Shown piece after piece: positions 24,115 to 61,737 of a stretch of 64,000 nt of DNA. Numbering within the stretch: position 1 is the stretch's first letter; each line of letters opens with the position of its first letter. The notes beneath the pieces are model-generated. The model was given only the letters and a program-made list of their open reading frames with translations. It was not told the DNA's origin and did not search any database. Position numbers and translations under genes: made by a program. This DNA is from Candidatus Woesebacteria bacterium (GTDB lineage: Bacteria > Patescibacteriota > Saccharimonadia > Saccharimonadales > EFPC-124): contig JASFQB010000003.1 in NCBI GenBank assembly GCA_050115675.1, positions 98,673 to 162,672 of the forward strand, read 5' to 3'.

Positions 24115-24201
24115 TCATGCGCCCGCAGTCCTAGGTGGCTGCGGGTTTTAATTTGATAATATACTTTGGTGCAACCAGTAGCACTTTGGTATACTGTAAA
24201 T

Positions 24202-24798: not shown

Positions 24799-24905
24799 CT
24801 GCAAACCTCTTTGCTAAGTCGCGTTTGTGTGATATAGTTTTATCTGTTCTGTATCTGTTGCAGGAAGCACTTTCTAGTTCAAGAGCGGCTGCAAAGCCGC
24901 TGTAT

Positions 24906-24982
24906 GCACCTGTAGCTCAGCTGGATAGAGCGTTGGCTTGCGGAGCCAAAGGTCGTAAGTTCGAATCTTGCCAGGTGTACCA
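24906..24982 (+). tRNA. tRNA-Arg(GCG)
   Basis: GCACCTGTAGCTCAGCTGGATAGAGC, anticodon arm TTGGC-TTGCGGA-GCCAA, T-arm GTAAG-TTCGAAT-CTTGC, CCA encoded. G1-U72 wobble noted. Confidence 0.85.
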
Positions 24983-25037
24983 AAGAAAATCCCCCATTAA
25001 TGTTGGGGGATTTTCTTTGGTAAAATATAAAACTATT

Positions 25038-26144
25038 TTATTGGCTTGTTGTTGGTGGTGTTTGTTTCTTGCTAGCATCATCTAGACTGTCATTATCGTT
25101 AGTTGTGCTGGGCTTTTCTGAACTATTTACTCTGGCCTCTGCTTTTTGCTGTGTCATTTTTTTGCCTTGACCTTCGTTATTCTTTTTAAACCAAGCATTA
25201 AATCCTGCCCAAATAGCAATTCCTGCTGCGGTAAATATGCCCCCAAAAATGAGCAATTGCAAGCCAACGAGTTTTAAGAGTAATTGCATTATCGGTATAA
25301 CAACGTTTGCCATCGAAATTTCAGAGGTCTCCATTCCTGGCAGCCCATCGGGCAATGAGCCTAGCCAAAACATCGCCACGCCAAAACAAAACGGCACAAG
25401 TGCGCCAGTAAATAATTTGCGACCAAAAATTGATGTAGATTTAATTTTTTCTGTTGAAATAACTAGCATAACAATATACGAAACAACTGCTAAAGCGGCC
25501 AGGATAATTACCGACCAGCGCAAGATCGTAAGGTACTGTGGTAATTGTGCAAATGGTGAAGATTCTGAACTAATATTTAGAGAATCGCTTGTAATTGGCT
25601 CAGAAGCAAACCCCGAACTGTTAATAGCTTGCGCTGCAAGCGTCTTTGCAAACTCCTCGCTTGTCATGTTTGCTGGTATGCATAAGTTTTGGGTGCTAAC
25701 CTGACTAAGGGCTGTGCAAGTTTGCAATTGGCCAAGCTCTGGCTCAATTTGCGTGGCTAATTCGTTAACGAGTACGTCGCGATTTTCGTCTACAGGAATG
25801 TTAAAATTTATTTCACTAGAGTCGCCGTCAATCCAGCTGTATGTGCTGTCAAGAACTGCCTCAGCTTGGGTTTGTATATAATCGCTTGTATAGGTGTTAG
25901 TCAGTGCGTCTGCTAGCGCGTCGCTTGTTAATATTGTTTCTGCCTGTGCTGCGGCTTGTGTTTGCAGTATTTCTGATAGTCCAGTGGTGAATGTATTGTA
26001 AACTCCACTATCGCTTAATCCTTGTTTCACGACAGATTCGTTAAAAATTGATGTTTGCAAAGCAAGTGCCCAAATAAGTATTGTTATGCATGTTGCACTA
26101 ATAAAACTAGCTAAAGATACAAAAAAAGAACGAAAAGACATCAT
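25038..26144 (-). CDS. hypothetical membrane protein
   Basis: 368 aa. N-terminal TM, ~200-aa ectodomain, three C-terminal TM helices, charged tail. Confidence 0.55.
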   Translation of the reverse strand: MMSFRSFFVSLASFISATCITILIWALALQTSIFNESVVKQGLSDSGVYNTFTTGLSEILQTQAAAQAETILTSDALADALTNTYTSDYIQTQAEAVLDSTYSWIDGDSSEINFNIPVDENRDVLVNELATQIEPELGQLQTCTALSQVSTQNLCIPANMTSEEFAKTLAAQAINSSGFASEPITSDSLNISSESSPFAQLPQYLTILRWSVIILAALAVVSYIVMLVISTEKIKSTSIFGRKLFTGALVPFCFGVAMFWLGSLPDGLPGMETSEISMANVVIPIMQLLLKLVGLQLLIFGGIFTAAGIAIWAGFNAWFKKNNEGQGKKMTQQKAEARVNSSEKPSTTNDNDSLDDASKKQTPPTTSQ

Positions 26145-26244
26145 AAAACCATTGTACGTTAAACATAAACACTATACAATTAATTGTTTGACTACTGTAA
26201 AAGTCGGTGAATAATGATATAATACCTGCGTTACAACCATAAAT

Positions 26245-26336
<92 letters not shown>

Positions 26337-45985: not shown

Positions 45986-46525
45986 TTATTGTTGTGGTTG
46001 AGGCTGATTAAAGTAGTCAATCTCTTTAATGACATCAAGTAGGGCTTGGGCTCTTTTGCCTTCGTCTTGAATGGACTTAGCAGCTTCGTGGGCACCTGGC
46101 AATAAGCTTTGGTCATCTGTTGAGCGTATAATTAGTAAAAGCGTGTCAAATTTTTCTTCTGGAGGCAAGTTTAGCTTGTCTACAAGGGGTCGTAGTTCTT
46201 CTAGTGCGCTACGTTTGATGTCGTCTAGGCCAGAGCCTGTAGTAGCAGTAGGTGCTTGCTCGACTACAGGTGCAGCGGGAGCGGGTGCTGAGGCTGGTTC
46301 CTCAACAGGTGAAGCAGCGGGCGCAACAGTCTGAGCAGTTGCTGGTTGTGCTGCCGTTTGCGATTGGGGCTGTGCCCCAGGAATAGGAGTTTCTTCAAAT
46401 TGAAGCCCAGCTGCAGCAGCAGGGCTTTGTGCTTGTTGATTTGGGTCGTCACTGACGCCCGCAAGTACTTTGGCTAATTCGTCATCACCAGCCATATCCT
46501 GGTGTTGAGGAGGATTAACGTCCAT
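45986..46525 (-). CDS. hypothetical Ala/Pro/Gln-rich protein with structured C-domain
   Basis: 179-aa ORF with a low-complexity central region. Two hairpin terminators lie between it and groEL. Confidence 0.5.
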   Translation of the reverse strand: MDVNPPQHQDMAGDDELAKVLAGVSDDPNQQAQSPAAAAGLQFEETPIPGAQPQSQTAAQPATAQTVAPAASPVEEPASAPAPAAPVVEQAPTATTGSGLDDIKRSALEELRPLVDKLNLPPEEKFDTLLLIIRSTDDQSLLPGAHEAAKSIQDEGKRAQALLDVIKEIDYFNQPQPQQ

Positions 46526-46586
46526 TATTGCCCACCTTTATAATAATTATGCTATTACCTAATACTGTATCATAATGGTTATGTAA

Positions 46587-47192
46587 ATGAAAAGTAACAC
46601 ATATATTTTAAACGATGATAAATTTATAAAGCGCTTTGGTTTGCGTGATTTTTTTGATAATTTGCCTGGCCAGATACCAAAAATTGCTGCCAGTCTTGGT
46701 ATTTTGCCAGACGATGATGTGGTAAAAGTTGCATCTACCTGGGTAAAAATGTGGCGCGAGGACGTGAACTTTTTAAACAATCAGGCCAAAAAGTGCGCTG
46801 ATTATATTGTAGGTAAAACAGTCATAATAAATTGTGATAAAACTATGCTGCCAGCTGCGACAAGCTGGAGGTTTGATTTAAATGTAATTTCAAAAAATCT
46901 TGCTTGGGTCGATATGGCCTCTGATATGACAACTAGGGAATTATCTGCTTGGTCGGGGTACCCAGTAGAGAAGCCTTTTGCGATATTTAATATATTGTCA
47001 GATTTTGACAGCCAGCAAACTCGAGATGTGTTTGAATTTGCAGATAAAAAGCTGTCTGGGCATCAGCCAAAAGCGATTTTGGTTAATGCGGCTGGCAACT
47101 CTCTGCTAGAACAACAATTGTACATCGCAATCTTTGGCAGGTGTGTGGCAGGATATTTGGCAGCATTAAATGGGGTGGGGTGCAAATTATAA
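46587..47192 (+). CDS. possible bifunctional PGI/PMI C-terminal-domain-like protein
   Basis: 201 aa. Weak by-eye resemblance only. Confidence 0.35.
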   Translation: MKSNTYILNDDKFIKRFGLRDFFDNLPGQIPKIAASLGILPDDDVVKVASTWVKMWREDVNFLNNQAKKCADYIVGKTVIINCDKTMLPAATSWRFDLNVISKNLAWVDMASDMTTRELSAWSGYPVEKPFAIFNILSDFDSQQTRDVFEFADKKLSGHQPKAILVNAAGNSLLEQQLYIAIFGRCVAGYLAALNGVGCKL

Positions 47193-47372
47193 ATTGACGC
47201 AAGTGCAAGACATGCCACTGGTTATGGTTTTTGCCGCAAAAAACGAGGTAGTCGTAGCTGGTGTTTCTTTACTCTGATCGCCATGCAATACTGAAGAAGA
47301 ACAGCGCTATGATATTATCAGCAAATTAGTATAAAAACCATTTTTATATACTAAAGTTCCCCATATATAAAA

Positions 47373-47401
47373 GGTGCCCGCCGCTGACGCAGCGAGGCAC
47401 C
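47373..47401 (-). terminator. hairpin downstream of islet-E gene
   Basis: GGTGCC...GGCACC outer stem with inner CGC/GCG. Confidence 0.45.
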
Positions 47402-47418
47402 ATATCACTTGCGACTGA

Positions 47419-47727
47419 TCAGTCCAGTGGATACGAGCGCACGGATGTCACGCTTCTAGGCAGACTATTCGCGATACGGTCATCCACTAGGAGTCGGTAT
47501 CTTTGCATCCCGTCCGCAGTACTCACAGGCGGCCTGTTGTGCGCCACTGTCAGCAACGGATTGCCTTGTCTGTCCAAACCACAAACGATCCGAAGCGGTA
47601 GAGCGATCTGTTCCTGAGACAGTGCCTCCCGCAGAGCTGCGCTGATCCTGCTTGCTTCACTCGGAGCGAGCGACCTGCTCAGCTTGTAAACGACCACGCT
47701 CTCCTGGCATGGAGTTTGCGACGACAT
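47419..47727 (-). CDS. hypothetical protein (GC-rich islet E)
   Basis: 102-aa ORF, no motif. Confidence 0.4.
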   Translation of the reverse strand: MSSQTPCQESVVVYKLSRSLAPSEASRISAALREALSQEQIALPLRIVCGLDRQGNPLLTVAHNRPPVSTADGMQRYRLLVDDRIANSLPRSVTSVRSYPLD

Positions 47728-47877
47728 GCTCTAATCCTTCCATCGGATGTCTGGGAGTGATTTCAGGCGGAAATTATACATTACTTCGTGCAGTAATGCA
47801 AGTCTAAACAATTGATTTTAATTAATTATCCCAAAAACAAATGTCTTAGAGCTGGATAAAAAGAGTCTACGGGCGTA

Positions 47878-47906
47878 TTGACAAAGTGTTACAATAGATA
47901 TACAAT
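47878..47906 (+). promoter_or_regulatory. promoter of dinJ/relE-like operon (very short leader)
   Basis: TTGACA, 17 nt, TACAAT. The -10 ends 9 nt before the ATG at 47916. Confidence 0.55.
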
Positions 47907-47915
47907 GTATATACT

Positions 47916-48197
47916 ATGAGCACAATACTCAACATTAGAACGGACGCACAAACTAAAAGTGAAATAACAAATTTTGCTTCATCTATTGGCTTATCAGCCA
48001 GTGCTTTTGTGCTAGCCGTGGTAAAACAGGCGGTTAGGGAAAAACAAGTAGTATTAAGGCCTTCTTTGGAGCCTACACCGCAACTAGAGAAGATTATGCG
48101 CGAAGCCGACGCAGATATTAAAGCAGGCAACAATATATCTAAGGCCTACAGCAATGTCGAGGATCTTTTTGCTGATCTTGATAAAAATAACGACTAA
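47916..48197 (+). CDS. RelB/DinJ-family type II antitoxin
   Basis: MSTILNIRTDAQTKSEITNFASSIGLSASAFVLAVVKQAVRE matches the DinJ-type RHH pattern. Confidence 0.75.
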   Translation: MSTILNIRTDAQTKSEITNFASSIGLSASAFVLAVVKQAVREKQVVLRPSLEPTPQLEKIMREADADIKAGNNISKAYSNVEDLFADLDKNND

Positions 48198-48199
48198 TT

Positions 48200-48457
48200 A
48201 TGCAAGTGCGTCTTCATAAAACATTCAGCAAACAGTACGCAAACCTAAAACCAACACAACAAAAACGTCTCAAACAAGCATTTGAGCTATTTATGGTAGA
48301 CCCTTTTCATCCAGACCTATACAATCACCCGCTGTCTGGGGAGTGGACAGGCTATCGCTCGATAGCTTTTGGTGGCGATTGGCGGGCGCATTATAAACAG
48401 ACTGATGATACGGCAATTTTTGTTGCGGTCGGTACGCATAGTCAGCTTTATAAATAG
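48200..48457 (+). CDS. RelE/YafQ-family type II toxin (mRNA interferase)
   Basis: 85 aa. HPLSGEWTGYRS...DWR..Y...GTHSQLY. 2-nt gap after the antitoxin. Confidence 0.8.
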   Translation: MQVRLHKTFSKQYANLKPTQQKRLKQAFELFMVDPFHPDLYNHPLSGEWTGYRSIAFGGDWRAHYKQTDDTAIFVAVGTHSQLYK

Positions 48458-48594
48458 TGTGCGGCCGCTCGCGCCAGACGAGGTTGAGCGAATTGTCAAC
48501 GCGCAAGTCCACCCCGAGCAACGTAAAAAGATTGAAGAAGTATAGAATGTTACACCAACTTGCTATAAAATAACTACCAGTAATTTTCTATTAC

Positions 48595-48904
48595 TACTTT
48601 GGCACAATAACACCACCCTGTCTGGGTGGTGCTATTTCAACAAACTCGTCCGCCCAACGCAAACTTGAGGCTGCTGTATGGTTGTATTATCCTCAAACAA
48701 CTCCCCAACAGGCATCTGCAAGGCGTTTGCAAGTCTGTAAATAGTTGCAGGCCTTGGCCATCTTTTACCAGTCTCTATAAAAGCAATAGAGCCATGACTA
48801 ATACCCAATAGGTCAGCTAGTTCTTGCTGAGTTAGCTTACGGCTTTTACGAACACGCGCAAGTCTTTTGCCGAATTGTTTTAGGTAGATGTCTTCGGTGT
48901 TGGT
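48595..48904. repeat. 310-bp direct repeat, copy 1 (XRE gene body plus its terminator hairpin)
   Basis: Base-for-base identical by eye to 52102-52411 (offset 3,507 bp). Confidence 0.9.
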
Positions 48905-48955
48905 TACAAAATTATAATCCTTGTTTATTGTAGGGTATTGTTTGGTGTGGTGCAA
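48632..48955 (-). CDS. XRE-family HTH regulator, repeat copy 1 (with 16-aa N-terminal extension)
   Basis: The last 90 aa are identical to 52139-52414. LTQQELADLLGISHGSIAFIETGKRWPR. Confidence 0.8.
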   Translation of the reverse strand: MHHTKQYPTINKDYNFVTNTEDIYLKQFGKRLARVRKSRKLTQQELADLLGISHGSIAFIETGKRWPRPATIYRLANALQMPVGELFEDNTTIQQPQVCVGRTSLLK

Positions 48956-48981
48956 CTTAGCACAAAACTATCATTTTTAGA

Positions 48982-49029
48982 CTAAGTTTGACAAGCATAG
49001 CTAGCTTTGTGTTTTACTGTGGCTATGAG
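48982..49029. repeat. 48-bp junction repeat, copy 1
   Basis: CTAAGTTTGACAAGCATAGCTAGCTTTGTGTTTTACTGTGGCTATGAG is identical at 53228-53275. It ends with the ATG-AG of the downstream cargo gene. Confidence 0.9.
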
Positions 49030-49969
49030 AGAGATTATCGCAAACATTCTAGCGGTGGCTTTTTTAGCTGGTATTGTTCTATTTGTCCTAACCCTCAAAA
49101 ACCCCAATCGTCGTTTTAACCAAGCTTTGTTTAAGACTGGTGACAAAAAGAAGTTAGTTGGCCGTTATATCGTTGTGCTGTTGGTGCTGTTTTTTGGCAT
49201 AGGTATTGCAACACCAAGCAAAACAGCACAGCCAGAGGCAGTTACTAGTAGCCAACAGCAAGAACAGCCAACCGAAGACAAAACTCAACTCTCTGACCTG
49301 TATGACGTTATAGAAGTGGTAGACGGCGACACAATCAAAGTAAATATAGATGGCAAAACAGAGACGTTGCGCTTAATAGGCATAGATACACCTGAAACAG
49401 TAGACCCCGGCAAACCAGTGCAATGTTATGGCAAAGAAGCTAGTGATAACGCAAAATCACTGCTTACAGGTAAAAAAGTGCGCCTAGAGAGCGATGATAC
49501 TCAAGAAGACCGCGACAAATACGACCGATTACTGCGTTACGTTTACTTTGAAGACGGCACAATGTACAACAAACAGGTAGTTGCTGACGGCTATGCTCAC
49601 GAATACACTTACAGTACCGCATACAAATACCAATCTGATTTTAAGCAAGCACAAAGCGACGCAGACGCGGCCAACAAGGGTTTTTGGTCGCCAAACACAT
49701 GCAATGGAGATACTGAGCAAGCCGTAAAACAAGAAGATAGCGCGGCCAACGTCGAAGCCGTAACGGAAACCCAAACAACGGCACCAGCAAACACAACCAC
49801 TTCCGAAGCACCGCAAAACACCACAACACCAGTGACGAGCGAGAGTACATCTGTTTATTATGCTGACTGCACAGCAGCTAGAGAGGCTGGTGTTGTGCCA
49901 ATATACTCTGGGCAACCTGGGTACAGTAGTAAATTGGATAGGGATGGGGATGGGATTGCTTGTGAATGA
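49025..49969 (+). CDS. membrane-anchored thermonuclease (SNase-like) with C-terminal excalibur Ca-binding domain
   Basis: VVDGDTIKV...LRLIGIDTPE (SNase motif). C-terminal YYADCTAAREAG...DRDGDGIACE (excalibur). Confidence 0.85.
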   Translation: MREIIANILAVAFLAGIVLFVLTLKNPNRRFNQALFKTGDKKKLVGRYIVVLLVLFFGIGIATPSKTAQPEAVTSSQQQEQPTEDKTQLSDLYDVIEVVDGDTIKVNIDGKTETLRLIGIDTPETVDPGKPVQCYGKEASDNAKSLLTGKKVRLESDDTQEDRDKYDRLLRYVYFEDGTMYNKQVVADGYAHEYTYSTAYKYQSDFKQAQSDADAANKGFWSPNTCNGDTEQAVKQEDSAANVEAVTETQTTAPANTTTSEAPQNTTTPVTSESTSVYYADCTAAREAGVVPIYSGQPGYSSKLDRDGDGIACE

Positions 49970-50125
49970 GAGTAATTCAACAAACAAAGAGAGCCGCAAA
50001 TTGTTGATGTGTCTATCCATGTTGGCGAGATAAATGTCGAACAATTAAAAGAAGATGCTTAAGATACTTGATTATACTTTCACTATTTGATATACTTTCA
50101 GTGTACATTGAAAGAAGTAGTTACA

Positions 50126-51184
50126 ATGAAAGAACAAGAACTTATTACCCAATTAGAACAATGGCTACCAGAAGCTCTTCCTGGCTTTAAGATAAGTTCG
50201 TTGCGCACTATAGCAAAAACAGCGTCAGAAAGCCGTGTGGACATTCTTGCGTCGCTTGAAATTCCTGCTACAAATAAGCAATTACAACTAGCTATCGCGG
50301 CTAATAATACGAGCAGGTTATTTTCATTGTTGGGCGAAGCATATTCAGCAAAAACGTTCGCACAGGTGACAGGTGCGGTGCCTGTTGTTGCAGCAATATT
50401 TTTAGGAAAACGTGTAAGGGAAGCGCTAAAAAAGGAAGGTGTTGGCTATCTTGACCTTGCGGGCAACTTCTACCTAAATATTCCTGGCGTGTATGCCGAA
50501 AGAATTATCGACAAGAACCCATTCAGCAGCACGCCACCCCTTAAAAACATCTTCTCGCCCATCTCTAGCCGTATTACAAGGGCGTTGCTCGAAGATCCAA
50601 AAAAAGAGTGGAGCATAAGCGATTTGTCGACAACTACTGGCGTAAGTTTGGGGCAGACCTATAACGTACTCAAAGCAATGTCAGATGAGGCATTTGTCCG
50701 TAAAGTTGATGATAGGTGGCAACTCAGCAACCCCACGGCGCTATTAGACGCGTGGAAAGAGTTTTACCCGAAGTATCAAAGTCGTAAGTACACATTCTTT
50801 AGCTACGCACCTAATGCCGTACCGAGCATGGTGCGCGATGCGGCGGAGCGTACGAAACTACCGTATGCACTCGGCTTCTTTAGTGGCGCTGATATGGTCG
50901 CGCCGTTCATTCGCGGCATGAATAAGGTGCAATTCTACACCGACCAAGAGTCAGTCGAAAAATGGCGCGATGCCCTCCAGTTGAAAGAAGTACAAAGCGG
51001 GGGTAATGTTGAAATATATGTGCCTTATGATGAGGGCGTGTTTTACGGCAAGCAACTATTGCCGCCGGGTGCGGAGGATACACCAGTTGTAAGTAATATT
51101 CAGTTGTACATGGATTTATTCAACAACCCAGCGCGCGGCGAAGAAGCGGCCGAATATCTGAGAAAGGAAAGAATAGGTTTCTAA
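50126..51184 (+). CDS. AbiEi-like putative antitoxin/transcriptional regulator (wHTH)
   Basis: 353 aa. Internal wHTH-like WSISDLSTTTGVSLGQTYNVLKAMSDEAFVRK. 1-nt gap to the nucleotidyltransferase gene. Confidence 0.45.
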   Translation: MKEQELITQLEQWLPEALPGFKISSLRTIAKTASESRVDILASLEIPATNKQLQLAIAANNTSRLFSLLGEAYSAKTFAQVTGAVPVVAAIFLGKRVREALKKEGVGYLDLAGNFYLNIPGVYAERIIDKNPFSSTPPLKNIFSPISSRITRALLEDPKKEWSISDLSTTTGVSLGQTYNVLKAMSDEAFVRKVDDRWQLSNPTALLDAWKEFYPKYQSRKYTFFSYAPNAVPSMVRDAAERTKLPYALGFFSGADMVAPFIRGMNKVQFYTDQESVEKWRDALQLKEVQSGGNVEIYVPYDEGVFYGKQLLPPGAEDTPVVSNIQLYMDLFNNPARGEEAAEYLRKERIGF

Positions 51185-51185
51185 T

Positions 51186-52052
51186 ATGACCCAAGACCCA
51201 CAAAACGTACGCACACAAGTATCTTTTAGTGACGACATTGCGCAAATATCGCTGTCGCACGTGCTTGAGATTATGAAAGCGTTGCAATCATACAAAGAGG
51301 GACTTTCTATTGTTGGTGGTTGGGCGCCGTACTTCTTACTACGACAATACCAACACGACGACAACGACTTTGAGCACGTCGGCTCGATAGACATTGATAT
51401 TGCTGTAAACCCCGAAGTTATCAACGAAACACAGTATGCTCAGCTCGAAGAGCTTTTGCGCGGACGCGGCTACGAGCCACACCCTAAAATTGAGTATTCG
51501 TATTACAAGAATGTGAAGACAAGTGACGGCCGCGAAGTGGAAATAAGGATAGACTTTTTGGCACCTGAATATGGCGGCACAGGCCGGGCGCACCGCAATC
51601 AGCGCGTGCAAAATGACTTCTTGGCACGCAAGGCAAAGGGTGCGGATTTGGCTTTTGAACACCGTTTCGAGTTTACGCTAAACGATCGGCTGCCAAACGG
51701 GGCAGATGCCAGCGTAAGCTTTTACGTTGCCGACATCGTGGCCATGATTGCGATGAAGAGCTATGTACTTGGCCACCGCTACAAGGAGAAAGACGCCTAC
51801 GACATCTTTAGCCTAGTACTGCACTACAAAGACGGCGTAGAATCCGTTGCGGCAGAAGTGAAGCCATTTATTGCTGACATACCATTGCCGGAGGGCATCG
51901 ACAACCTTAAAGAGCAGTTTGCGACGCAGAGCTCACAAGGCCCCGCATCTGTGGCCGATTTCCACCGTGATGAGGGTGAAAGCCGCGAGCAGCGCACACA
52001 ACAAGCATATTTGCAGATTCAACGTCTACTTGAATTATTAGAGAACGGCTAG
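51186..52052 (+). CDS. AbiEii/AbiGii-like nucleotidyltransferase (type IV TA toxin-like)
   Basis: Pol-beta NTase signature IVGGWAPYFLL...GSIDIDIAV, further acidic DFLAP. Confidence 0.55.
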   Translation: MTQDPQNVRTQVSFSDDIAQISLSHVLEIMKALQSYKEGLSIVGGWAPYFLLRQYQHDDNDFEHVGSIDIDIAVNPEVINETQYAQLEELLRGRGYEPHPKIEYSYYKNVKTSDGREVEIRIDFLAPEYGGTGRAHRNQRVQNDFLARKAKGADLAFEHRFEFTLNDRLPNGADASVSFYVADIVAMIAMKSYVLGHRYKEKDAYDIFSLVLHYKDGVESVAAEVKPFIADIPLPEGIDNLKEQFATQSSQGPASVADFHRDEGESREQRTQQAYLQIQRLLELLENG

Positions 52053-52101
52053 GCTTGCCCAAACACCCAACACAAAGTACAATAAACCTGTAATTTTTCG
52101 T

Positions 52102-52411
52102 TACTTTGGCACAATAACACCACCCTGTCTGGGTGGTGCTATTTCAACAAACTCGTCCGCCCAACGCAAACTTGAGGCTGCTGTATGGTTGTATTATCCT
52201 CAAACAACTCCCCAACAGGCATCTGCAAGGCGTTTGCAAGTCTGTAAATAGTTGCAGGCCTTGGCCATCTTTTACCAGTCTCTATAAAAGCAATAGAGCC
52301 ATGACTAATACCCAATAGGTCAGCTAGTTCTTGCTGAGTTAGCTTACGGCTTTTACGAACACGCGCAAGTCTTTTGCCGAATTGTTTTAGGTAGATGTCT
52401 TCGGTGTTGGT
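52102..52411. repeat. 310-bp direct repeat, copy 2
   Basis: Identical to 48595-48904. Confidence 0.9.
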
Positions 52412-52414
52412 CAT
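52139..52414 (-). CDS. XRE-family HTH regulator, repeat copy 2
   Basis: 91 aa. ETGKRWPR subfamily. Downstream gene of a two-XRE operon. Confidence 0.85.
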   Translation of the reverse strand: MTNTEDIYLKQFGKRLARVRKSRKLTQQELADLLGISHGSIAFIETGKRWPRPATIYRLANALQMPVGELFEDNTTIQQPQVCVGRTSLLK

Positions 52415-52418
52415 ATGG

Positions 52419-52679
52419 TTATAAATCCTCTGTGATGTCCTTAATTTTAATACCTAGCGCATTAGCTATGCGCCAGATGGTGTGCATGCTAGGGGAGCGT
52501 GTGCTGTTCTCTATGTGGCCTATAAAAGTACGGTAATAACCTGCTTTTTCGGACAGTTGTTCTTGGCTAATATTACGCTCAATCCTGATTTTGTGTAGCC
52601 TTTGGCCAATTAGTTTGGCAAATTCTTTCTTTTCTGCATCTTTTGAATGCCTGTCATCTAGGTTGTAATCTGGTTTCAT
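52419..52679 (-). CDS. XRE-family HTH regulator (second subfamily)
   Basis: IGQRLHKIRIERNISQEQLSEKAGYYRTFIGHIENSTRSPS. Confidence 0.85.
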   Translation of the reverse strand: MKPDYNLDDRHSKDAEKKEFAKLIGQRLHKIRIERNISQEQLSEKAGYYRTFIGHIENSTRSPSMHTIWRIANALGIKIKDITEDL

Positions 52680-52782
52680 TGTATTTATTGCAGAGCAGAC
52701 ACCACTGCTAGTCCACTCACGTATAGTGGTGCTAACTCAATTATTCTGCTATATTTACCTTAAAAAAGGAGAGCAGGGAACA

Positions 52783-53250
52783 ATGGTAACAGTCAAGTGT
52801 ATACCTAAAACAGCAATTGCAAAAGACTTAGCAACCCAGTTGGTTAAAGATGCAGGTCAAAGCAAAATAATTGTTATTGCCTCTTGTCCTCATGTACTAA
52901 TGTCTTGTACAAAAAAGCACTGGCACAAACAAATGGCAATGTTAAGGCGTAAAATATCCTCAACTCTTGATCTAAACAAAAAAGAGCAAATACAAAACAC
53001 AATAACCGCACTACAACAACAAACATTTATATCTAACAAAAGCGGTCAACTGGTACAAGGCTATGACGTATGCTTTATAGCTCCACAAGCAGCAACAAAA
53101 GAACTGACAGAATACGCCAAGCTGTATGTTACGGTTCAGACAGTACCTAGTGAATTATACAGGTTGGTGAGCTGGGCTGAAGGAGGGCTGGAGGTTGTGG
53201 TGTATGAGTCGAGGAGGGTATTTTTGGCTAAGTTTGACAAGCATAGCTAG
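52783..53250 (+). CDS. member 2 of recurrent ~150-aa XRE-associated protein family
   Basis: ATG 52783 with AGGAGAG RBS. SKIIVIASCPHVLMSCTKK...YDVCFIAPQ...LYVTVQTVPSELY...VVVYE. Confidence 0.55.
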   Translation: MVTVKCIPKTAIAKDLATQLVKDAGQSKIIVIASCPHVLMSCTKKHWHKQMAMLRRKISSTLDLNKKEQIQNTITALQQQTFISNKSGQLVQGYDVCFIAPQAATKELTEYAKLYVTVQTVPSELYRLVSWAEGGLEVVVYESRRVFLAKFDKHS

Positions 53251-53275
53251 CTTTGTGTTTTACTGTGGCTATGAG
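53228..53275. repeat. 48-bp junction repeat, copy 2
   Basis: Identical to 48982-49029. Here it overlaps the last 7 codons and stop of 52783-53250 and the start of 53271-53960. Confidence 0.9.
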
Positions 53276-53960
53276 TACTGAGACGGAAGTATCATCTTAC
53301 AAGGAACGTATGCAGCTCCTTATCTCGTTAGACGAATTGTGCCAAGACATAGGCAAAAACTTGATCCATAACGAACCGGAATCACCCACGGGTGACTACT
53401 GCAAACAACTGATCTGGACTATTGGCCCAGCAACAAGAATGCTTGTATGGGGCTTAGAGAACGCCCAGAAAATGGCAGCCATGAATGGCTTGAGGACGCT
53501 GCTAGAAAATTGGGCAAATGCCAACTATGTTTTTCGCGCAGGGAAAAGAGGTAAGGAATATTACATTGAGGGAATGGGCGCTACAGCACACCAGTACAGA
53601 GATGCCTTTCACGAGCTGCGCGATGACTCGTCTCAAGGAATAAAAAAGCTGACGAGAATACCAAAATGGACTGGCTGCGGCCTGACAGATAGGATTAAAA
53701 AACTTGGAGATGGGCCTGAGTTCCAATACGAGTATCTGAGCCGCTATGTTCACGCCGACGTATGGGCGACGTTGAACGAGTTCGACATCAAAGACCAAGC
53801 ATACATGAGAGGTGAGCTACTCGGTTGGGGTATTGAGTTTATAAACCATACTTTATGGCTTATGAGTGAAGAGAATCTAATTGGCGATGATTTGCAATCT
53901 AAGATAGGAAGCATGAATGATCGGGTATCAGAGATAATTGCGAACGAGGGCAAAGAATAG
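53271..53960 (+). CDS. hypothetical all-helical protein (cargo of XRE module ii)
   Basis: 229 aa from ATG 53271. No catalytic motif recognised (YLSRYVHADVWA block). Confidence 0.5.
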   Translation: MSTETEVSSYKERMQLLISLDELCQDIGKNLIHNEPESPTGDYCKQLIWTIGPATRMLVWGLENAQKMAAMNGLRTLLENWANANYVFRAGKRGKEYYIEGMGATAHQYRDAFHELRDDSSQGIKKLTRIPKWTGCGLTDRIKKLGDGPEFQYEYLSRYVHADVWATLNEFDIKDQAYMRGELLGWGIEFINHTLWLMSEENLIGDDLQSKIGSMNDRVSEIIANEGKE

Positions 53961-54003
53961 AGCTTTCAATCTTTGTCTCAAAAACCACGGTTTTTGGCGC
54001 AAT

Positions 54004-54225
54004 ATGGTTGCGATTCGTTGGTGGGGGCTTGGCGCTAGTATCTTGTCGTTGTCTACAGCTGTGGCAGCAGTTGCAATGATGGCAAGCAAAATCTTGCCAG
54101 TAATAGCAGTTGGGGTGGCGTTGCTGGTGTGTGCGTATTGGTCTTTTGTCGTCCATAACGAGCGTGTGCTCACTGCGGCAGAACGATACAAGGAACAATT
54201 CTTTAAATCAATGACTCTTTTTTAG
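54004..54225 (+). CDS. small 2-TM membrane protein
   Basis: 73 aa from ATG 54004 (MVAIRWWGLGASILSLSTAVAAVAMM...). Preceded by hairpin CAAAAACC-AC-GGTTTTTG. Confidence 0.35.
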   Translation: MVAIRWWGLGASILSLSTAVAAVAMMASKILPVIAVGVALLVCAYWSFVVHNERVLTAAERYKEQFFKSMTLF

Positions 54226-54232
54226 TAGGTCG

Positions 54233-54261
54233 TTGACAATTACATATAAATTACATACAAT
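54233..54261 (+). promoter_or_regulatory. promoter of RHH/PIN operon
   Basis: TTGACA, 17 nt, TACAAT. Confidence 0.55.
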
Positions 54262-54289
54262 ATTTATATAAGATCAATATAGGATTTAT

Positions 54290-54556
54290 ATGTCTACACA
54301 AGTAATAAACCTTTCATTACCAAAAGAATTAGTAGAAAAAATTGACCAAGCTGCAAAAGGCGAATACGCAAGTCGTAGTGAATACATACGACAAGCTGTT
54401 GTAAGCCGCCTGAAAGGGCAGGAGGGCGATTTATGGGCAGCTCTTCTTTCTGGCGCTGATGAAGTAAGAGAGAGCGCACGACAAGCTGGCTATACGTCAG
54501 ACGAAGACTATGCGCGTGCGGCAAAAGAAGTCCGTAGCGAAGACCGAAAGCAATAA
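54290..54556 (+). CDS. ribbon-helix-helix (CopG/MetJ-type) antitoxin
   Basis: INLSLPKELVEKIDQAAKGEYASRSEYIRQAVVSRL. Confidence 0.7.
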   Translation: MSTQVINLSLPKELVEKIDQAAKGEYASRSEYIRQAVVSRLKGQEGDLWAALLSGADEVRESARQAGYTSDEDYARAAKEVRSEDRKQ

Positions 54557-54559
54557 GCT

Positions 54560-54959
54560 ATGCGGGTTGTTTATGATACCAGCGTACTTGCAACCATATT
54601 GTCGCGCAGAGATTTAATACTAAATCTTCAAAAAGATTTATCACGTGGCGCAGTGGTTTTGATCTCCTCCCAGTTTATCTTAAACGAGCTTGAAAGAGTG
54701 CTTTCAGGCAAGTTTGGCTTAACAAAACAGGGAGCAAAAACCAGAGTTCGATTGTTAGGGCGTGTTGCAGAGATTGTGAAGCCAAAAGACGTACAAAGAA
54801 TCGTGCGTGACGCAAATTGACCCTATAATTGCTGCCGCCGTTGTGAGTGGCGCAAAGTATATTGTTACGCTAGATAATGACCTCTTGGTGATAGGGGAGC
54901 ATAATGGTATTGCAATTGTTGAGCCAGAGAAGTTTAAAGAAGAGTTGGCGAAACAATAG
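54560..54959 (+). pseudogene. PIN-domain toxin disrupted by a frameshift at ~54818
   Basis: Frame 1 MRVVYDTSVLATIL...RIVRDAN stops at 54818-54820. The reading frame shifted by +1 from 54819 continues DPIIAAAVVSGAKYIVTLDNDLLVIGEHNGIAIVEPEKF to TAG 54957-54959. Together these give a canonical PIN layout. Confidence 0.65.
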
Positions 54960-54973
54960 GGTATTTAATACAC

Positions 54974-55252
54974 ATGAAAGATTTTTTATTCAGCATTAAA
55001 AACAAATACGTTCGTTGTTTGGTGGCTTGTGCGATTTTGGCTGTAGTGGTTTTATTGGCGGTGTTCGAGGCATATATACCGCTGCAAAAGCTCGGGTTTT
55101 CTTATTTTGAAACAACGTTTTTTCTCTTTATGTTTATACTTGCGATCGACCGTGTGCGCTTGTTTATAAAAGATGCTGAGCGCGAGCAAAGTTACAAAAA
55201 CCTAATAGTAAAAAAGCGTTCCGCACTAGCAATGAAAACAACGGCAGAATAG
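54974..55252 (+). CDS. hypothetical 2-TM membrane protein
   Basis: 92-aa ORF. Confidence 0.4.
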   Translation: MKDFLFSIKNKYVRCLVACAILAVVVLLAVFEAYIPLQKLGFSYFETTFFLFMFILAIDRVRLFIKDAEREQSYKNLIVKKRSALAMKTTAE

Positions 55253-55260: not shown

Positions 55261-55304
55261 TGTATACGTTTACGTACACGTATACGTAGATGTAAACGTA
55301 TACA
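55261..55304. repeat. nested palindrome rich in ACGT/GTATAC
   Basis: 13-bp arms TGTATACGTTTAC (55261-55273) / GTAAACGTATACA (55292-55304) flank an 18-nt spacer containing the perfect palindrome ACGTATACGT. Confidence 0.7.
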
Positions 55305-55307: not shown

Positions 55308-55430
55308 TCACTCGAAAAACTGCCCCACTGTAACACCCAAATTGCCTGCCAATCGGTGCAGAGTGCTTGGCCTTGGCCACCGCTTCCCAGTCTCAATAAA
55401 CGTAATAGAAGCATGACTAATGCCAAGAGA
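55308..55430 (-). pseudogene. 5'-truncated remnant of an ETGKRWPR-type XRE gene
   Basis: Only the C-terminal LGISHASITFIETGKRWPRPSTLHRLAGNLGVTVGQFFE is homologous to the intact copies. The upstream part of the ORF is unrelated and lies antisense to the start of 55420-56004. Confidence 0.55.
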
Positions 55431-56004
55431 ATTGGCAGAGCAGCTTGTGGGCGACGTAGGCGAAACTAAGATAGCAATAATTGCAACAAATCCTTTGGCA
55501 CTGTTATCGAGCATCCGAAAGTTCTACAAACAGCAGATCACGCGGTTTAAGCGCGAGCTGTCATCGACAATGGATTACGACAAGCGTACTAGATTGAATA
55601 ATATAATTACTACGCTGCAAAAACAGCGTTTTACAGCCCGTCCGCAGGGCTTGTTTGAGGGGTATAATGTGTGTTTTATGTTGCCAGAGGTCGCGCTGAA
55701 AGAGCCGCCAATATGCAATAAACTGTATGTTACTTGCCAGATGACAACCACGGAATTATACATGGTTACAAGCTGGATGTCTTGGGGTATGGAGGCGGTG
55801 ATTTATGAGGGTAGGAATCGTTGTGAGCGAAAAAGGCAGTGTTTTGTAGCTGGATTGGAAGCTAAGAGGCAGAGCTCACGAATGTCGATTCAGGCATTTA
55901 GCAACAAAGAACACTTGACGGCACTGTTGACATTTAATATAATTTATTTTGTCGATAGGTATAGACAACCTTTTGGAGAGAGTCATGCAAACGGCAGTCA
56001 ATAG
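55420..56004 (+). CDS. member 3 of recurrent XRE-associated family (N-terminally shortened, C-terminal run-on)
   Basis: TKIAIIATNPLALLSSIRK...YNVCFMLPE...LYVTCQMTTTELY...AVIYE. Family similarity ends at about nt 55819. The remaining ~60 codons run over the radical SAM promoter and start. Confidence 0.45.
   Translation: MPRELAEQLVGDVGETKIAIIATNPLALLSSIRKFYKQQITRFKRELSSTMDYDKRTRLNNIITTLQKQRFTARPQGLFEGYNVCFMLPEVALKEPPICNKLYVTCQMTTTELYMVTSWMSWGMEAVIYEGRNRCERKRQCFVAGLEAKRQSSRMSIQAFSNKEHLTALLTFNIIYFVDRYRQPFGESHANGSQ
55915..55943 (+). promoter_or_regulatory. promoter of the radical SAM gene
   Basis: TTGACG, 17 nt, TATAAT. Confidence 0.55.
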
Positions 56005-56887
56005 CGCTCTGCGCGTTCGTGTTACGCCGATGTGTAACATGTCGTGTGTGTTTTGCCATGAAGAAGGCGGAGATCGATCTGCTTTGCTGAGCACTAGCCA
56101 AACTACTGAGTTGGCTGAGTTTGCCAGAGAACACAGTTTTACTAAGTTTCATTTGACTGGAGGCGAACCAACGCTTCATCCTGAGCTGTCCAGCTTGGTG
56201 CGAGTGATATCGGATGCAGGGTTTCCTTGTAACCTGACTACAAACGGTCAATTCCGCTCGACGCTTCTTTGGAGACTAAGGGATGCTTGTGTCGGTAGCA
56301 TGAATTTTTCGATTCATACTGTCGATCCTGCTGCTTGGTCAAAATTGCAGCATCGTGGTAGCCTTCGAGTCGCCGAAATGCAGATTGCCAGGGCATCGAC
56401 GAATATTCAGGAAGCGGTTTTACTTGGCATCAAAACAAAAGTCAACATTGTAGTAGGCGATAACCCCACTCTTGCCGTAGGGGTTGTAGAGCACTTCCGC
56501 AACTCAGGTGTCGATTTTCGGTTGCTGAACGTGCTGGGTTCTGAGCAGTCACTAGCTAGCATCGATCAAGTCTTGAAGCACTATTCAGCCAAGGTTGTTG
56601 CAGAGACGCAGATTCTTGGTTCGAGCCAATTTCGAACAAGCTATAGCAGCTCTGTCGGCGATTTGGTAGTAAAACAGATTCGTGACTACCGCGAGCCTAG
56701 TGTGTGCGCTGGTTGCAAAACAAAGTGTGACGAAGGCTTTTATGGCGTGCGCATTGTGCCTATGCAGGGCAGGCTGTACGCACGGCTTTGTCTGCATCAT
56801 ACTTCCGAATCGACCCTCCTCCCATTGGCAGTATTTCGTAGAAGCCCTCAACTTGCTGCAATCAAAAAGCAAAGTGGGCTTATCTAA
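55985..56887 (+). CDS. MoaA-like radical SAM enzyme with C-terminal auxiliary-cluster (twitch-like) Cys motif
   Basis: ATG 55985 with GGAGAG RBS. LRVRVTPMCNMSCVFCHEEGG (CX3CX2C), FHLTGGEPTL, NLTTNGQF, SMNFSIHTVDP. C-terminal CAGCKTKC...GRLYARLCL parallels the MoaA C-x2-C...C GTP-binding cluster region. Confidence 0.8.
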   Translation: MQTAVNSALRVRVTPMCNMSCVFCHEEGGDRSALLSTSQTTELAEFAREHSFTKFHLTGGEPTLHPELSSLVRVISDAGFPCNLTTNGQFRSTLLWRLRDACVGSMNFSIHTVDPAAWSKLQHRGSLRVAEMQIARASTNIQEAVLLGIKTKVNIVVGDNPTLAVGVVEHFRNSGVDFRLLNVLGSEQSLASIDQVLKHYSAKVVAETQILGSSQFRTSYSSSVGDLVVKQIRDYREPSVCAGCKTKCDEGFYGVRIVPMQGRLYARLCLHHTSESTLLPLAVFRRSPQLAAIKKQSGLI

Positions 56888-56900
56888 CGATGAGCCGTCG

Positions 56901-56936
56901 TGGTAGCCCAGTCGCATTTGGTTGGCTGGGCTACCA
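56901..56936 (+). other. 11-bp-stem hairpin between the radical SAM and CYTH genes
   Basis: TGGTAGCCCAG / CTGGGCTACCA with a 14-nt loop and no T-run. TATAAT at 56955-56960 follows. Confidence 0.5.
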
Positions 56937-56970
56937 AGCTGAATAAAATCATAGTATAATATAACTAATT

Positions 56971-57462
56971 ATGAACACCGAACTAGAGAAGAAATTTAAA
57001 ATCGCAAGCCCTGATAAAGCAAAGCAAGAGTTAACCGAACTAGGAGCCCAGTTTGTTGGCGAAACCCACGACGTAGATATTTATTTTAAAGTCCCACAAG
57101 AAAAACCCAATACACTCTATTTGCGTATACGAACGCGTGGCAACAAAAGTACCCTGGCGTTTCATGAGGTTGTTGACGATTTAGAGACTAAAGAGTGGGA
57201 AACCGAAGTAGCCAGCGGCCAAACCACTCAAGATATTATTACCAAACTCGGATTTGAAGTTGATGTTACTGTTGATAAAACAAGACAAAAATACAGTTTT
57301 GATAACTCAGAAATATTGCTTGATAACATTGCAGGCCTAGGCTATTTTATTGAAATCGAATCGCCAAATGAACAAGAGTTGGATAATATTGCAGCCAAGT
57401 TTACTCTTGGTGAGAGAATAACCGGTAAAGGCTACCCAGATTTGTTAAAAGAAAAGGCCTAA
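56971..57462 (+). CDS. CYTH-domain protein (CyaB-like class IV adenylyl cyclase / triphosphate tunnel metalloenzyme)
   Basis: 163 aa. N-terminal ELEKKF (EXEXK signature), later YLRIR, KTRQKY, YFIEIE strands typical of CYTH. Confidence 0.8.
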   Translation: MNTELEKKFKIASPDKAKQELTELGAQFVGETHDVDIYFKVPQEKPNTLYLRIRTRGNKSTLAFHEVVDDLETKEWETEVASGQTTQDIITKLGFEVDVTVDKTRQKYSFDNSEILLDNIAGLGYFIEIESPNEQELDNIAAKFTLGERITGKGYPDLLKEKA

Positions 57463-59190: not shown

Positions 59191-60414
59191 TTATTGAAAA
59201 AATCGCAGTGCGTCTATTGGGTTTTTGCGTGCGGCTTTTATTGCTGGTACAATGCCAAAAATTACGCCAACCAATGTGGCTATCCCAAGCGAGATCGCAA
59301 CAATTTGAACTGTAATTACGGGGGTAATTTCTAGTAGTGTGCCCGCTAAAAAGGCAAGCCCGTAAGCGATTGCAATACCAAAAAGGCCCCCAACTAAGCT
59401 CATAAACAAGGCTTCTATTAGAAATTGGCGCAAAATTTGCATATTTGTAGCCCCAACTGCCTTGCGAATGCCAATTTCGCGCGTGCGTTCTGTAACAGAA
59501 ACTAACATTATATTCATAATGCCAATTCCACCAACAATTAACGATATAGAAGCAACAGCCGTAGTCAGGGCTGTAATAATTTGCAACCAAGTGTCAGTGA
59601 TTTGAATTGTTTGCTCGGGACGCAAAACGGCAAAATCCTCTTGATTGCCGTGGTTTTTTAATACTTGCTGGTTAAGCTGCTGAGCTACATCTTTTATGTT
59701 GTTGTCTGTGCGCACGTTAATTAGCTGAATTTGAGCAATCCCTTGATTAAATGCCTTTCCGGCGTCAAGCGGTATGAAGGCCGTTCGGTTGTAATCAAAC
59801 AGATTACTAAAGCTTGTGCGCACCTCGTATGGTGCAAGAATGCCAATTACTGTAAATGTCTTCCCTCTTAAAAATATTTGCTGGCCTAAGACTTGATCTG
59901 TGCCGAGTAGCTCTATTGCTAAATCGTGACCCAAAATGACTGTCTCGCGGTTGGTGATATCATTAATAAACTCGCCGCTTCGAATTTTAAAGTTTAAAAC
60001 CTTCTCGCAGCTGCTATCTGTAGCGATAATTGATGTATTAGTGATGGGTTTGTGATTGTTGTCGGCTACTGTCCCCGTAATTGCCATTATAGGGGCGGCC
60101 CCGGTAATGTTTGGATTTTTTTTGACCGTATCTAGGTCGTATTCGCTAATGGTAGATGACCCAAGGGCTGCAAAAAGGTTATAGCCTGTAACGTTTCCGT
60201 TGCTGTCTTGCGTAATTTGGCCAGGGCGAATTGTAATTAGGTTTGTACCCATGTAATCAACCTGGTCGCGAATTTTTTGTTTTGCTCCTTCGCCAAGTGA
60301 CATAACAATGGTTACTGAGGCTACTCCAATAATAATTCCCAACATGGTTAGTCCGGTACGTAATTTTGTGGCGCGCAATGATTTTATTGCGATTTTTGCA
60401 TCAGTTAGGGCCAT
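59191..60414 (-). CDS. MacB/FtsX-type ABC transporter permease
   Basis: 407 aa. N-terminal TM, large periplasmic-type domain, C-terminal FtsX block ERTREIGIRKAVGA. Confidence 0.85.
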   Translation of the reverse strand: MALTDAKIAIKSLRATKLRTGLTMLGIIIGVASVTIVMSLGEGAKQKIRDQVDYMGTNLITIRPGQITQDSNGNVTGYNLFAALGSSTISEYDLDTVKKNPNITGAAPIMAITGTVADNNHKPITNTSIIATDSSCEKVLNFKIRSGEFINDITNRETVILGHDLAIELLGTDQVLGQQIFLRGKTFTVIGILAPYEVRTSFSNLFDYNRTAFIPLDAGKAFNQGIAQIQLINVRTDNNIKDVAQQLNQQVLKNHGNQEDFAVLRPEQTIQITDTWLQIITALTTAVASISLIVGGIGIMNIMLVSVTERTREIGIRKAVGATNMQILRQFLIEALFMSLVGGLFGIAIAYGLAFLAGTLLEITPVITVQIVAISLGIATLVGVIFGIVPAIKAARKNPIDALRFFQ

Positions 60415-61645: not shown

Positions 61646-61737
61646 GGAGAGGTGGCCGAGTGGTCGAAGGCGCACGCCTGGAAAGTGTGTATGCGGGGCA
61701 ACTCGCATCAAGGGTTCGAATCCCTTCCTCTCCGCCA
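61646..61737 (+). tRNA. tRNA-Ser(GGA)
   Basis: GGAGAGG acceptor, anticodon loop CTGGAAA, long variable arm, GGTTCGAATCC, CCA encoded. Confidence 0.9.

Follow-up and report, generated by a model that had tools for sequence, protein, structure and literature searches.

How did two stretches of DNA, identical base for base, come to bracket a nuclease gene and an AbiE-like gene pair in a genome of uncultured Candidatus Woesebacteria, and what do they imply for the stability of the genes between them? The window analysed here is a stretch of 64,000 nucleotides from contig JASFQB010000003.1 (assembly GCA_050115675.1). The two repeats are:

48595..48904, no strand: repeat copy X1, 310 bp, 100% identical to X2
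52102..52411, no strand: repeat copy X2, 310 bp

On base-by-base extension, X1 and X2 match in a single unbroken run of 310 bp at an offset of 3,507 bp. A repeat search and self-BLAST gave the same 310-bp pair, and a similar repeat was absent elsewhere in the window. The perfect direct repeats reported in a preliminary description of this DNA are therefore borne out, and so is its reading of their content: both X1 and X2 hold a gene of the XRE family from codon 2 to the stop codon together with a hairpin. The 37 non-coding bases of the core are identical as well. The following elements belong to or adjoin the repeats:

48632..48955, minus strand: XRE copy 1 as annotated, 107 aa, TTG start (NCBI MGD8373803.1)
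52139..52414, minus strand: XRE copy 2, 91 aa, ATG start (MGD8373807.1), HTH_3 57.5 bits
52419..52679, minus strand: XRE', 86 aa, a second, different HTH_3 regulator immediately upstream of copy 2 and in the same operon
48606..48636, minus strand: hairpin with a 13-bp stem that follows the XRE stop directly; repeated at 52113-52143

The HTH_3 domain of XRE (PF01381) scores far above the Pfam cut-off of 23 bits. The hairpin has a folding energy of -21.3 kcal/mol (z = -5.4) and is retained in the ortholog of the relative L026 via a compensatory C-G to U-A change. Copy 2 is indeed the distal gene of an XRE'-XRE pair, with stop and ATG 4 nt apart, an arrangement that is kept in L026. At codon 1, copy 2 has ATG and copy 1 has GTA (native start site 48905-48907); the ancestral AAGGA ribosome-binding site is still present in copy 1, but the ancestral ATG has been changed. 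The N-terminal extension of 16 aa ascribed to copy 1 exists in the annotation, yet it is not a true gain, since it results from loss of the native ATG and runs to the next in-frame start, a TTG. As this TTG has no Shine-Dalgarno sequence, copy 1 may be poorly or not translated and may thus be a non-translated or weakly translated relic. With the XRE protein as query, GTDB genomes and JGI metagenomes yielded only relatives of at most 58% identity, in unrelated contexts. The XRE of L033 (56% identical) is surrounded by housekeeping genes and is uninformative. Exact-product look-ups with the 91-aa XRE, a 90-aa repeat-only fragment and the GTG-start ORF174 gave no match, which reflects limits of the index or of start-codon choice and not absence.

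The flanks of the repeats had been described as diverging immediately, and this does not hold. In gapped self-BLAST the alignment widens to 48566-48921 versus 52078-52429 (357 columns, 95.5%), so that about 47 more aligned columns are still homologous at roughly 66% identity. Non-matching columns number 16 of 47 in the flanks against 0 of 310 in the core (Fisher p = 6e-16); a 47-column alignment is short and only moderately secure, and it is backed by 15 of 15 matches to L026 in each flank of copy 1. Because the orthologous locus of L026 agrees at every position with the 15 nt next to X1 on either side, the homology of copy 1 must reach past the perfect tract. Taken together, the flank homology and these matches indicate a duplicated segment of about 357 bp or more, of which the core alone is perfect:

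48566..48921, no strand: extended homology of copy 1, X1 plus diverged flanks of 29 nt and 17 nt

Comparison of the 70 bp to the right of copy 1 with the 809 bp to the right of copy 2, past the initial 17 nt, gave a score of 20, not significant against shuffles (17.5 +/- 2.1).

L026 and the window share about 86% nucleotide identity from GroEL to PGI_C. Its gene order is TA module, XRE, XRE', and the nuclease and AbiE genes are absent from the locus, which is a cassette-free 'empty site'. It has one XRE, 91.3% identical to the core (27 of 310 positions differ; 13 codons differ synonymously), whereas X1 and X2 differ at 0 of 310. Two features of the window are compared with it:

52050..52497, no strand: copy 2 and flanks, collinear with the single-copy locus of L026 (86% over 454 nt)
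47916..48457, plus strand: RelB-like antitoxin and YafQ/RelE-type toxin pair, left of X1

On one side, copy 2 is flanked by the spacer up to the stop of the nucleotidyltransferase (NTase) gene, and on the other by the 3' end of XRE'; copy 2 occupies the ancestral position (spacer, XRE, then XRE'). In place of the RelB-like and YafQ/RelE-type pair to the left of X1, L026 has a Gp49(HigB)/HTH pair.

The DNA between the repeats had been called a 3.2-kb cassette. It is not one unit: it consists of two unrelated modules, and the AbiEi_2/NTase pair recurs on other contigs without the nuclease or XRE. The genes are:

49025..49969, plus strand: membrane-anchored SNase + Excalibur thermonuclease, 314 aa
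50126..51184, plus strand: AbiEi_2-domain protein, 352 aa
51186..52052, plus strand: DUF1814/AbiEii-like nucleotidyltransferase, 288 aa

The thermonuclease has an SNase domain (88 bits), a C-terminal Excalibur domain (57 bits) and hydrophobic anchors at the N-terminus, from which an extracytoplasmic nuclease is predicted. It has these domains and the N-terminal anchors in common with staphylococcal-type thermonucleases that carry Excalibur (NucI-like), but its score of 141.5 falls short of the NucI equivalog cut-off of 250. Nutrient scavenging and defence are candidate roles for such an enzyme in a CPR bacterium. The AbiEi_2 protein reaches 39.9 bits with PF09952 (cut-off 21), and 1 nt separates its stop at 51184 from the NTase start at 51186. 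The same pair is found in L028, L030 and one JGI contig in other contexts, where nucleotide homology is confined to 50077-52044, a self-contained module.

As in the AbiE type IV toxin-antitoxin/abortive infection systems, a regulator-like gene with AbiEi_2 above cut-off lies directly 5' of the NTase gene. The NTase itself did not hit PF08843; its best Pfam match was PF12281 (23 bits, below the cut-off of 26.3), and the PADLOC AbiEii model gave E = 0.007. PF08843 was detected in 8 of 26 NTase homologs and PF12281 in 18. Residues G44 G45, D69-I-D71, K191...R198 and K202-D-A-Y-D206 are invariant in all 26. AbiEii proteins carry motifs I-IV, comprising hG[GS]...DhD, a K-containing motif III and +DxxD (PMC3985639), and the window NTase family resembles them in its GG...DxD, K...R and invariant KDAYD (+DxxD) pentad. 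It differs in a motif I-II spacing of 23 residues instead of 15 and in a His in place of the motif II Arg. A structure model of the NTase (pLDDT 90.6) yielded weak Pol-beta-superfamily matches in Foldseek against the PDB (best E = 1.4e-3, TM 0.35), with no AbiEii or MenT among the 50 matches listed, and a profile search of PDB sequences gave no match.

A second direct repeat, D2, which the preliminary description does not mention, occurs in the same order as X1 and X2, its copies (48975-49029 and 53221-53275) sharing 55 bp with 2 mismatches and 48 bp of exact match. Nearby lies a decayed third XRE copy:

48975..49029, plus strand: repeat D2a, containing TTGACA, a 14-bp near-palindrome (CATAGCTAGCTTTG) and the nuclease ATG
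53221..53275, plus strand: repeat D2b, overlapping the last 9 codons of ORF155 and supplying the ATG of a DUF5677-like gene
52783..53250, plus strand: ORF155, divergent partner of the XRE'-XRE operon, of an uncharacterised family
55308..55424, minus strand: X3, decayed third XRE copy with the C-terminal ~40 aa left (about 70% aa identity; 82% nt over 56 nt)

No Pfam family was found for homologs of ORF155. X3 lies directly against ORF194, a paralog of ORF155 with a shortened N-terminus, and this position shows that the XRE module had been duplicated earlier in the island. Scans of viral contigs for D2 and for the XRE motif gave 0 matches. One may speculate that, through the 55-bp, promoter-like D2, a single repressor (possibly this XRE) controls both the nuclease operon and the DUF5677-like gene. 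The promoter pattern was counted at 19 sites against 15 +/- 4 expected and terminator patterns are likewise at chance level, so promoter assignments are speculative.

The island is bordered by conserved PGI_C and GroEL on the left and by a MacB/FtsX ABC transporter on the right, and its content varies among relatives, with RelBE replaced by HigBA and, in L032, an AbiE pair directly beside MacB. It resembles variable defence/TA islands (integration hotspots) in that conserved core genes frame differing content, and differs from them in that no recombinase was found within it and no tRNA gene borders it. Among the island ORFs scanned with Pfam (47.4 to 59.1 kb), none gave a match to an integrase, transposase or recombinase family, and 0 pairs of inverted repeats occur in 46000-55000. 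A transposon or integron reading was rejected because neither feature occurs in these stretches. The X1/X2 repeat is a whole gene and not an att site. Repeated regulator genes appear to supply the homology on which island turnover depends.

Given these observations, we regard it as probable that X1 and X2 arose by ordinary duplication of an XRE gene and its terminator within a hypervariable TA/defence island, that the core was homogenised by conversion or recombination, and that 3,507 bp can be deleted. On this view, X1 and X2 are paralogs, each holding the same small repressor gene of the XRE family plus terminator. Copy 1 would be an incomplete duplicate, at least about 357 bp long and comprising the last XRE' codons, the ribosome-binding site, XRE, the terminator and about 29 nt of spacer. 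It lies beside a stretch absent from the L026 locus that consists of two independent cargo modules, the thermonuclease, secreted or anchored in the membrane, and the AbiE-like pair. The perfect core within flanks diverged by roughly 34% points to a gene-conversion or homologous-recombination tract that homogenised the two copies. Very recent duplication or gene conversion had been proposed from the start; conversion or recent recombination fits, but a simple, very recent duplication of exactly 310 bp is disfavoured, since the diverged flanks argue for the homogenisation of an older or foreign duplicate. The identity of X1 to X2 exceeds that to the ortholog, and homology continues past the tract at much lower identity, which is how conversion between paralogs is recognised. 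RecA-type recombination between X1 and X2 would remove 3,507 bp (a single X copy plus the nuclease and AbiE genes) and bring back the TA-XRE-XRE' order of L026. The earlier suggestion that the block is deletable by homologous recombination thus stands as a prediction, whereas inversion is ruled out: repeats in direct orientation lead to deletion or duplication.

Bacterial paralogs undergo concerted evolution via RecA-dependent gene conversion, as in tufA/tufB of Salmonella. Like these genes, the copies in the window are closer to each other (100%) than to the ortholog (91%), and the tract has abrupt edges. In contrast to tufA/tufB, X1 and X2 are direct repeats just 3.5 kb apart, one of them partial and without a start codon, and they are known here from a metagenome assembly.

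A less likely origin is a very recent duplication by Campbell-type integration with no later conversion, in which circular or linear DNA of the structure X-R1-D2-nuclease-AbiE-spacer, from a strain with an already identical XRE allele, recombined once in the chromosomal XRE. The single crossover would leave two identical hybrid XRE copies, and the repeat would be the footprint of integration. The sharp ends of perfect identity, the missing cargo at the L026 orthologous locus and the duplication of D2 in the same order all agree with this, and the near flanks of copy 1, L026-like and unlike those of copy 2, fit a donor and a recipient origin. However, the donor must share an identical 310-bp core and yet differ by about 34% in the adjoining 15-30 nt, which again implies earlier homogenisation or exchange. 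Moreover, the analysis revealed neither a circular form nor an integrase or plasmid function, and the viral contig collection yielded nothing related.

Somewhat more doubtful still is an effect of assembly, a caveat that the preliminary description had raised and that is real. The source is a short-read metagenome assembly in which near-identical copies collapse to one graph node, so that the 100% identity of X1 and X2 can be inflated and a few real differences could be hidden. The repeat might then reflect imperfect copies that were collapsed, or a single RelE-X-XRE' chromosome together with an X-nuclease-AbiE segment of 3,507 bp, present as an excised circle, a tandem amplification or a strain variant, that the assembler threaded into the chromosome. 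Copy 1 is spanned in two assemblies. Copy 2 is spanned in the 180,506-bp NCBI/JGI contig, but JGI assembly 3300042731 breaks exactly at this copy, with the NTase gene at the end of one contig and XRE' at the start of the next. Logan contigs (k=31) end 30 nt inside X1, X2 and D2, which indicates branching of the assembly graph at these points and permits alternative traversals. The lengths 150,786 and 29,435 sum to 180,221, 285 bp under the 180,506-bp contig, a shortfall suggesting that the latter represents the same data with the repeat bridged. The 3.5-kb segment may be unstable or mis-joined in the assembly. Against an assembly effect, the JGI contig of 150,786 bp is continuous through copy 1 (RelE-X-nuclease-AbiE), with XRE1 lying between RelE (left) and the nuclease (right). 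In an independent build from the SRR11713588 reads, contigs agree with the window at 100% and include each left junction (RelE-side|X, NTase-side|X). The copies carry distinct, diverged remnants of ancestral flanks, as expected of two genuine copies and not of one in two contexts. In addition, copies several percent apart would remain separate in a de Bruijn graph, and the 3.5-kb segment encodes no replication or recombination protein and so could not persist as a replicon.

Selection for two functional repressors, through XRE dosage or XRE control of the cargo, with purifying selection alone preserving identity, is highly improbable: the near-palindrome-bearing D2, which separates copy 1 from the nuclease and recurs ahead of the DUF5677-like gene, and a weak minus-strand promoter-like site facing copy 1, speak for it, but protein-level selection cannot hold synonymous sites and 37 non-coding bases when the ortholog differs at 13 synonymous codons, copy 1 lacks an ATG and a Shine-Dalgarno sequence for its TTG, and promoter matches stand at the chance level given above.

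A wider reading would make the conserved repressor gene a portable homology anchor in these small CPR genomes, in which mobile-element machinery is not seen here, the XRE and D2 copies letting nuclease, AbiE and ORF155-family cargo come, swap and go by homologous recombination alone, with the 3.5-kb block reversibly excisable in the population and three XRE generations within 7 kb as traces; we consider this a long shot. The X1/X2 finding opens no new mechanism. Its value lies mainly in a caution and in a small case study of how the content of a Woesebacteria defence/TA island shifts between relatives without a nearby recombinase. Should reads show the population to be mixed for the block, the locus would be a tidy case of homologous recombination adding and removing an AbiE-like system and an extracellular nuclease in a CPR bacterium.

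The two direct repeats reported by eye in the preliminary description are exact. Base-by-base extension gave a single unbroken identical run of exactly 310 bp (48595-48904 and 52102-52411, offset 3,507), and a repeat search and self-BLAST of the window agreed. As also described, each copy carries codon 2 through the stop codon of an XRE/HTH_3 gene (PF01381, 57.5 bits) and a hairpin with a 13-bp stem starting at the XRE stop codon (dG -21.3 kcal/mol, z = -5.4). The copies and the genes between them are:

48595-48904, repeat copy 1 with minus-strand XRE gene; annotated protein of 107 aa (NCBI MGD8373803.1)
49025-49969, SNase and Excalibur gene (SNase 88 bits, Excalibur 57 bits); two N-terminal hydrophobic segments
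50126-51184, AbiEi_2-domain gene (AbiEi_2 above threshold)
51186-52052, NTase gene of a large family (471 hits)
52102-52411, repeat copy 2 with minus-strand XRE gene; protein of 91 aa (NCBI MGD8373807.1)

As assembled, the repeat is genuine and free of mismatches. Both XRE proteins come from a 180,506-bp Candidatus Woesebacteria MAG contig, which JGI/IMG also lists. JGI metagenome 3300042731 divides the region between a 150,786-bp contig, with GroEL, RelBE, XRE (107 aa), nuclease, AbiEi_2 and NTase genes and no later gene call, and a 29,435-bp contig with nothing past XRE', the second, different HTH_3 regulator directly upstream of copy 2. This assembly therefore reads across copy 1 but is interrupted at copy 2. 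Together the two contigs amount to 180,221 bp, and the shortfall of 285 bp fits a long contig built from the same data by bridging the repeat. Two Logan contigs of SRR11713588 match the window at 100%. The first stops at 48624, 30 nt inside copy 1, and the second covers 49000-52131, from 30 nt before the end of a shorter repeat, D2 (see below), to 30 nt inside copy 2. These are the ends expected from branching of a k=31 graph at the 310-bp repeat and at D2, and they show that both left junctions of the long repeat are present in the reads; the Logan contigs bear on these left junctions only, the repeat interior and the pairing of left with right flanks lying outside their reach.

A related locus for comparison was provided by L026, a 5,062-bp Logan contig from SRR28814854 that carries a 91-aa XRE variant (P0006) and is about 86% identical to the window over GroES, GroEL and PGI_C. 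Read in window orientation, L026 runs from GroEL and PGI_C through an 80-aa gene, a Gp49(HigB)/HTH pair and a spacer to XRE and the 3' end of XRE'; nuclease and AbiE genes are absent from this locus on the 5,062-bp contig. Copy 2 with both flanks (52050-52497) is collinear with L026 (86% over 454 nt), the homology ending at the NTase stop codon in the window and at the HTH gene stop in L026. This collinearity argues that copy 2 occupies the ancestral position and that L026 represents the 'empty site'. The toxin-antitoxin module between PGI_C and XRE has been swapped as a whole, being of RelB/YafQ type in the window (47362-48565) and of Gp49(HigB)/HTH (HigBA) type in L026 (468-1480).

Copy 2 was correctly recognized as the distal gene of a two-XRE operon: it starts 4 nt past the XRE' stop, is preceded by AGAGGA and keeps this arrangement in L026. 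Copy 1 reads GTAACC where copy 2 and L026 read ATGACC. The 16-aa N-terminal extension ascribed to copy 1 is indeed annotated, giving the 107-aa protein, but it amounts to reading back from the altered ATG (now GTA) to the next in-frame TTG at 48955, upstream of which no Shine-Dalgarno-like sequence was found. A minus-strand promoter-like site is present at 48994-48967, but the region has such sites at chance frequency (19 found, 15 +/- 4 expected).

The preliminary description had the flanks diverging immediately, which does not hold. With gaps allowed, BLAST aligns the two copies over 48566-48921 and 52078-52429 (357 columns, 95.5%), and all 16 non-matching columns fall within the 47 flanking ones (Fisher p = 6e-16). 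In a three-way alignment, the 15 nt that precede copy 1 (AAGGATTATAATTTT) take in the last part of XRE', the ribosome-binding site and the nucleotides up to the start codon; they are identical to L026, as are the 15 nt downstream of the copy 1 repeat (GTAATAGAAAATTAC); the copy 2 counterparts carry several substitutions and small indels. Flank homology and the match to L026 suggest that the duplicated segment was at least about 357 bp long and is perfect only in its central 310 bp. Against L026 the core shows 27 changes in 310 positions, and since 13 synonymous codons are among these changes, protein-level selection cannot account for the absence of any core difference between the copies. From the alignments we infer that a perfect core in diverged flanks fits a gene-conversion or recombination tract that would have been overlaid on an older or foreign duplicate. 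Alternatively, one crossover with an allele that was identical beforehand may have brought about the integration, or the copies may truly differ at a few positions that the assembler merged.

The intervening block had been viewed as one nuclease and AbiE-like cassette. Its gene contents stand, its unity does not: the AbiEi_2/NTase pair is also found beside different neighbours on other contigs, and the nucleotide homology of these contigs to the window is limited to 50077-52044, which rules out a three-gene cassette and points to two independent modules. The SNase-Excalibur protein, scoring below the NucI equivalog cut-off, is read as a putative extracytoplasmic thermonuclease. Members of the NTase family match PF12281 (18 of 26) or PF08843 AbiEii (8 of 26) weakly. 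Residues invariant in 26 homologs (G44 G45, D69-x-D71, K191...R198 and K202-D-A-Y-D206) correspond to AbiEii motifs I-IV (PMC3985639), although the spacing between motifs I and II is longer than in AbiEii. The predicted structure is confident (pLDDT 90.6); the 50 PDB matches listed for it include only weak Pol-beta-superfamily matches and no AbiEii/MenT toxin structure.

D2, missed by the preliminary description, is a 55-bp pair (48975-49029 and 53221-53275; 2 mismatches, 48 bp exact) in the same order as the XRE copies. Its elements are the hexamer TTGACA, a 14-bp near-palindrome (CATAGCTAGCTTTG) and the start codon (ATG) of the gene that follows, which is the nuclease gene in one copy and an unrelated DUF5677-like gene in the other. 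D2 may be a promoter/operator shared by both genes, with little or no leader. Its second copy overlaps the final nine codons of ORF155, the divergent partner of the XRE'-XRE operon, suggesting a further recombination junction there. ORF155 (52783-53250) is one of a small family of ~150-aa proteins for which neither Pfam nor NCBIfam has a model; its residues 115-140 also match a short motif that recurs many times within proteins of 1,000-3,800 aa.

A third XRE fragment (55308-55424, minus strand) is reduced to the C-terminal ~40 residues (about 70% amino acid identity) and is fused head-to-head with ORF194 (55420-56004, plus strand), which is 43% identical to ORF155 and lacks its first ~12 residues. 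The two look like the scar of an older XRE/XRE'/ORF155 copy, and their adjacency argues for earlier duplication and decay of this module. Directly downstream of the remnant lies a tandem array (55262-55303; period 18 or 12, GTATACGTAGACGTAAAC-like, about 2.3-3.2 copies). In L032, a contig of another relative, an AbiE-like NTase gene directly adjoins a MacB/FtsX gene homologous to window 59191-60414 (L032 1048-2028). Roughly 7 kb of the window, from the XRE pair to the CYTH gene and beyond, are thus missing between them, and the entire 47.3-59.1 kb stretch varies among relatives. Among the ORFs scanned within this stretch, none matched an integrase, transposase or recombinase family in Pfam, and a search around the block yielded no inverted repeats.

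The stretch also holds an RHH (CopG) antitoxin gene and, after it, a PIN-domain gene apparently split into two overlapping ORFs (54290-54959; PIN ORFs 54560-54820 and 54807-54959), probably a frameshifted VapC. At 55949-57462 a radical-SAM protein matching PADLOC prokaryotic viperin models (pVip, E = 3e-18; 195 aa in the JGI call, 312 aa as ORF) is followed by a CYTH-domain protein, and the two may be a candidate defence pair. Elsewhere in the window, 18261-19253 contains a set of three direct repeats (about 160 bp each, 70-78% identical, about 400-470 bp apart) that have diverged and may represent small paralogous genes or domains in tandem. Four tRNA-Ser genes (anticodons tga, gct, cga and gga) and one tRNA-Arg gene lie in 20780-26336 and 61646-61737.

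An identical direct repeat of 310 bases is an adequate substrate for homologous recombination. The block had been proposed to be deletable or invertible; deletion agrees with such a repeat, whereas inversion is ruled out because the repeats are direct. Recombination between the copies would produce a 3,507-bp deletion and a circle without replication function, and the deletion would leave RelBE-XRE(ATG)-XRE', restoring the arrangement of L026. Among the assembled contigs, the material covered here, no variant carrying this deletion was seen. The phenomenon and every component are of known kinds, and the best account of the locus is that a regulator gene was duplicated and its core homogenised by recombination, the copies now bracketing two cargo modules in a variable toxin-antitoxin/defence island.
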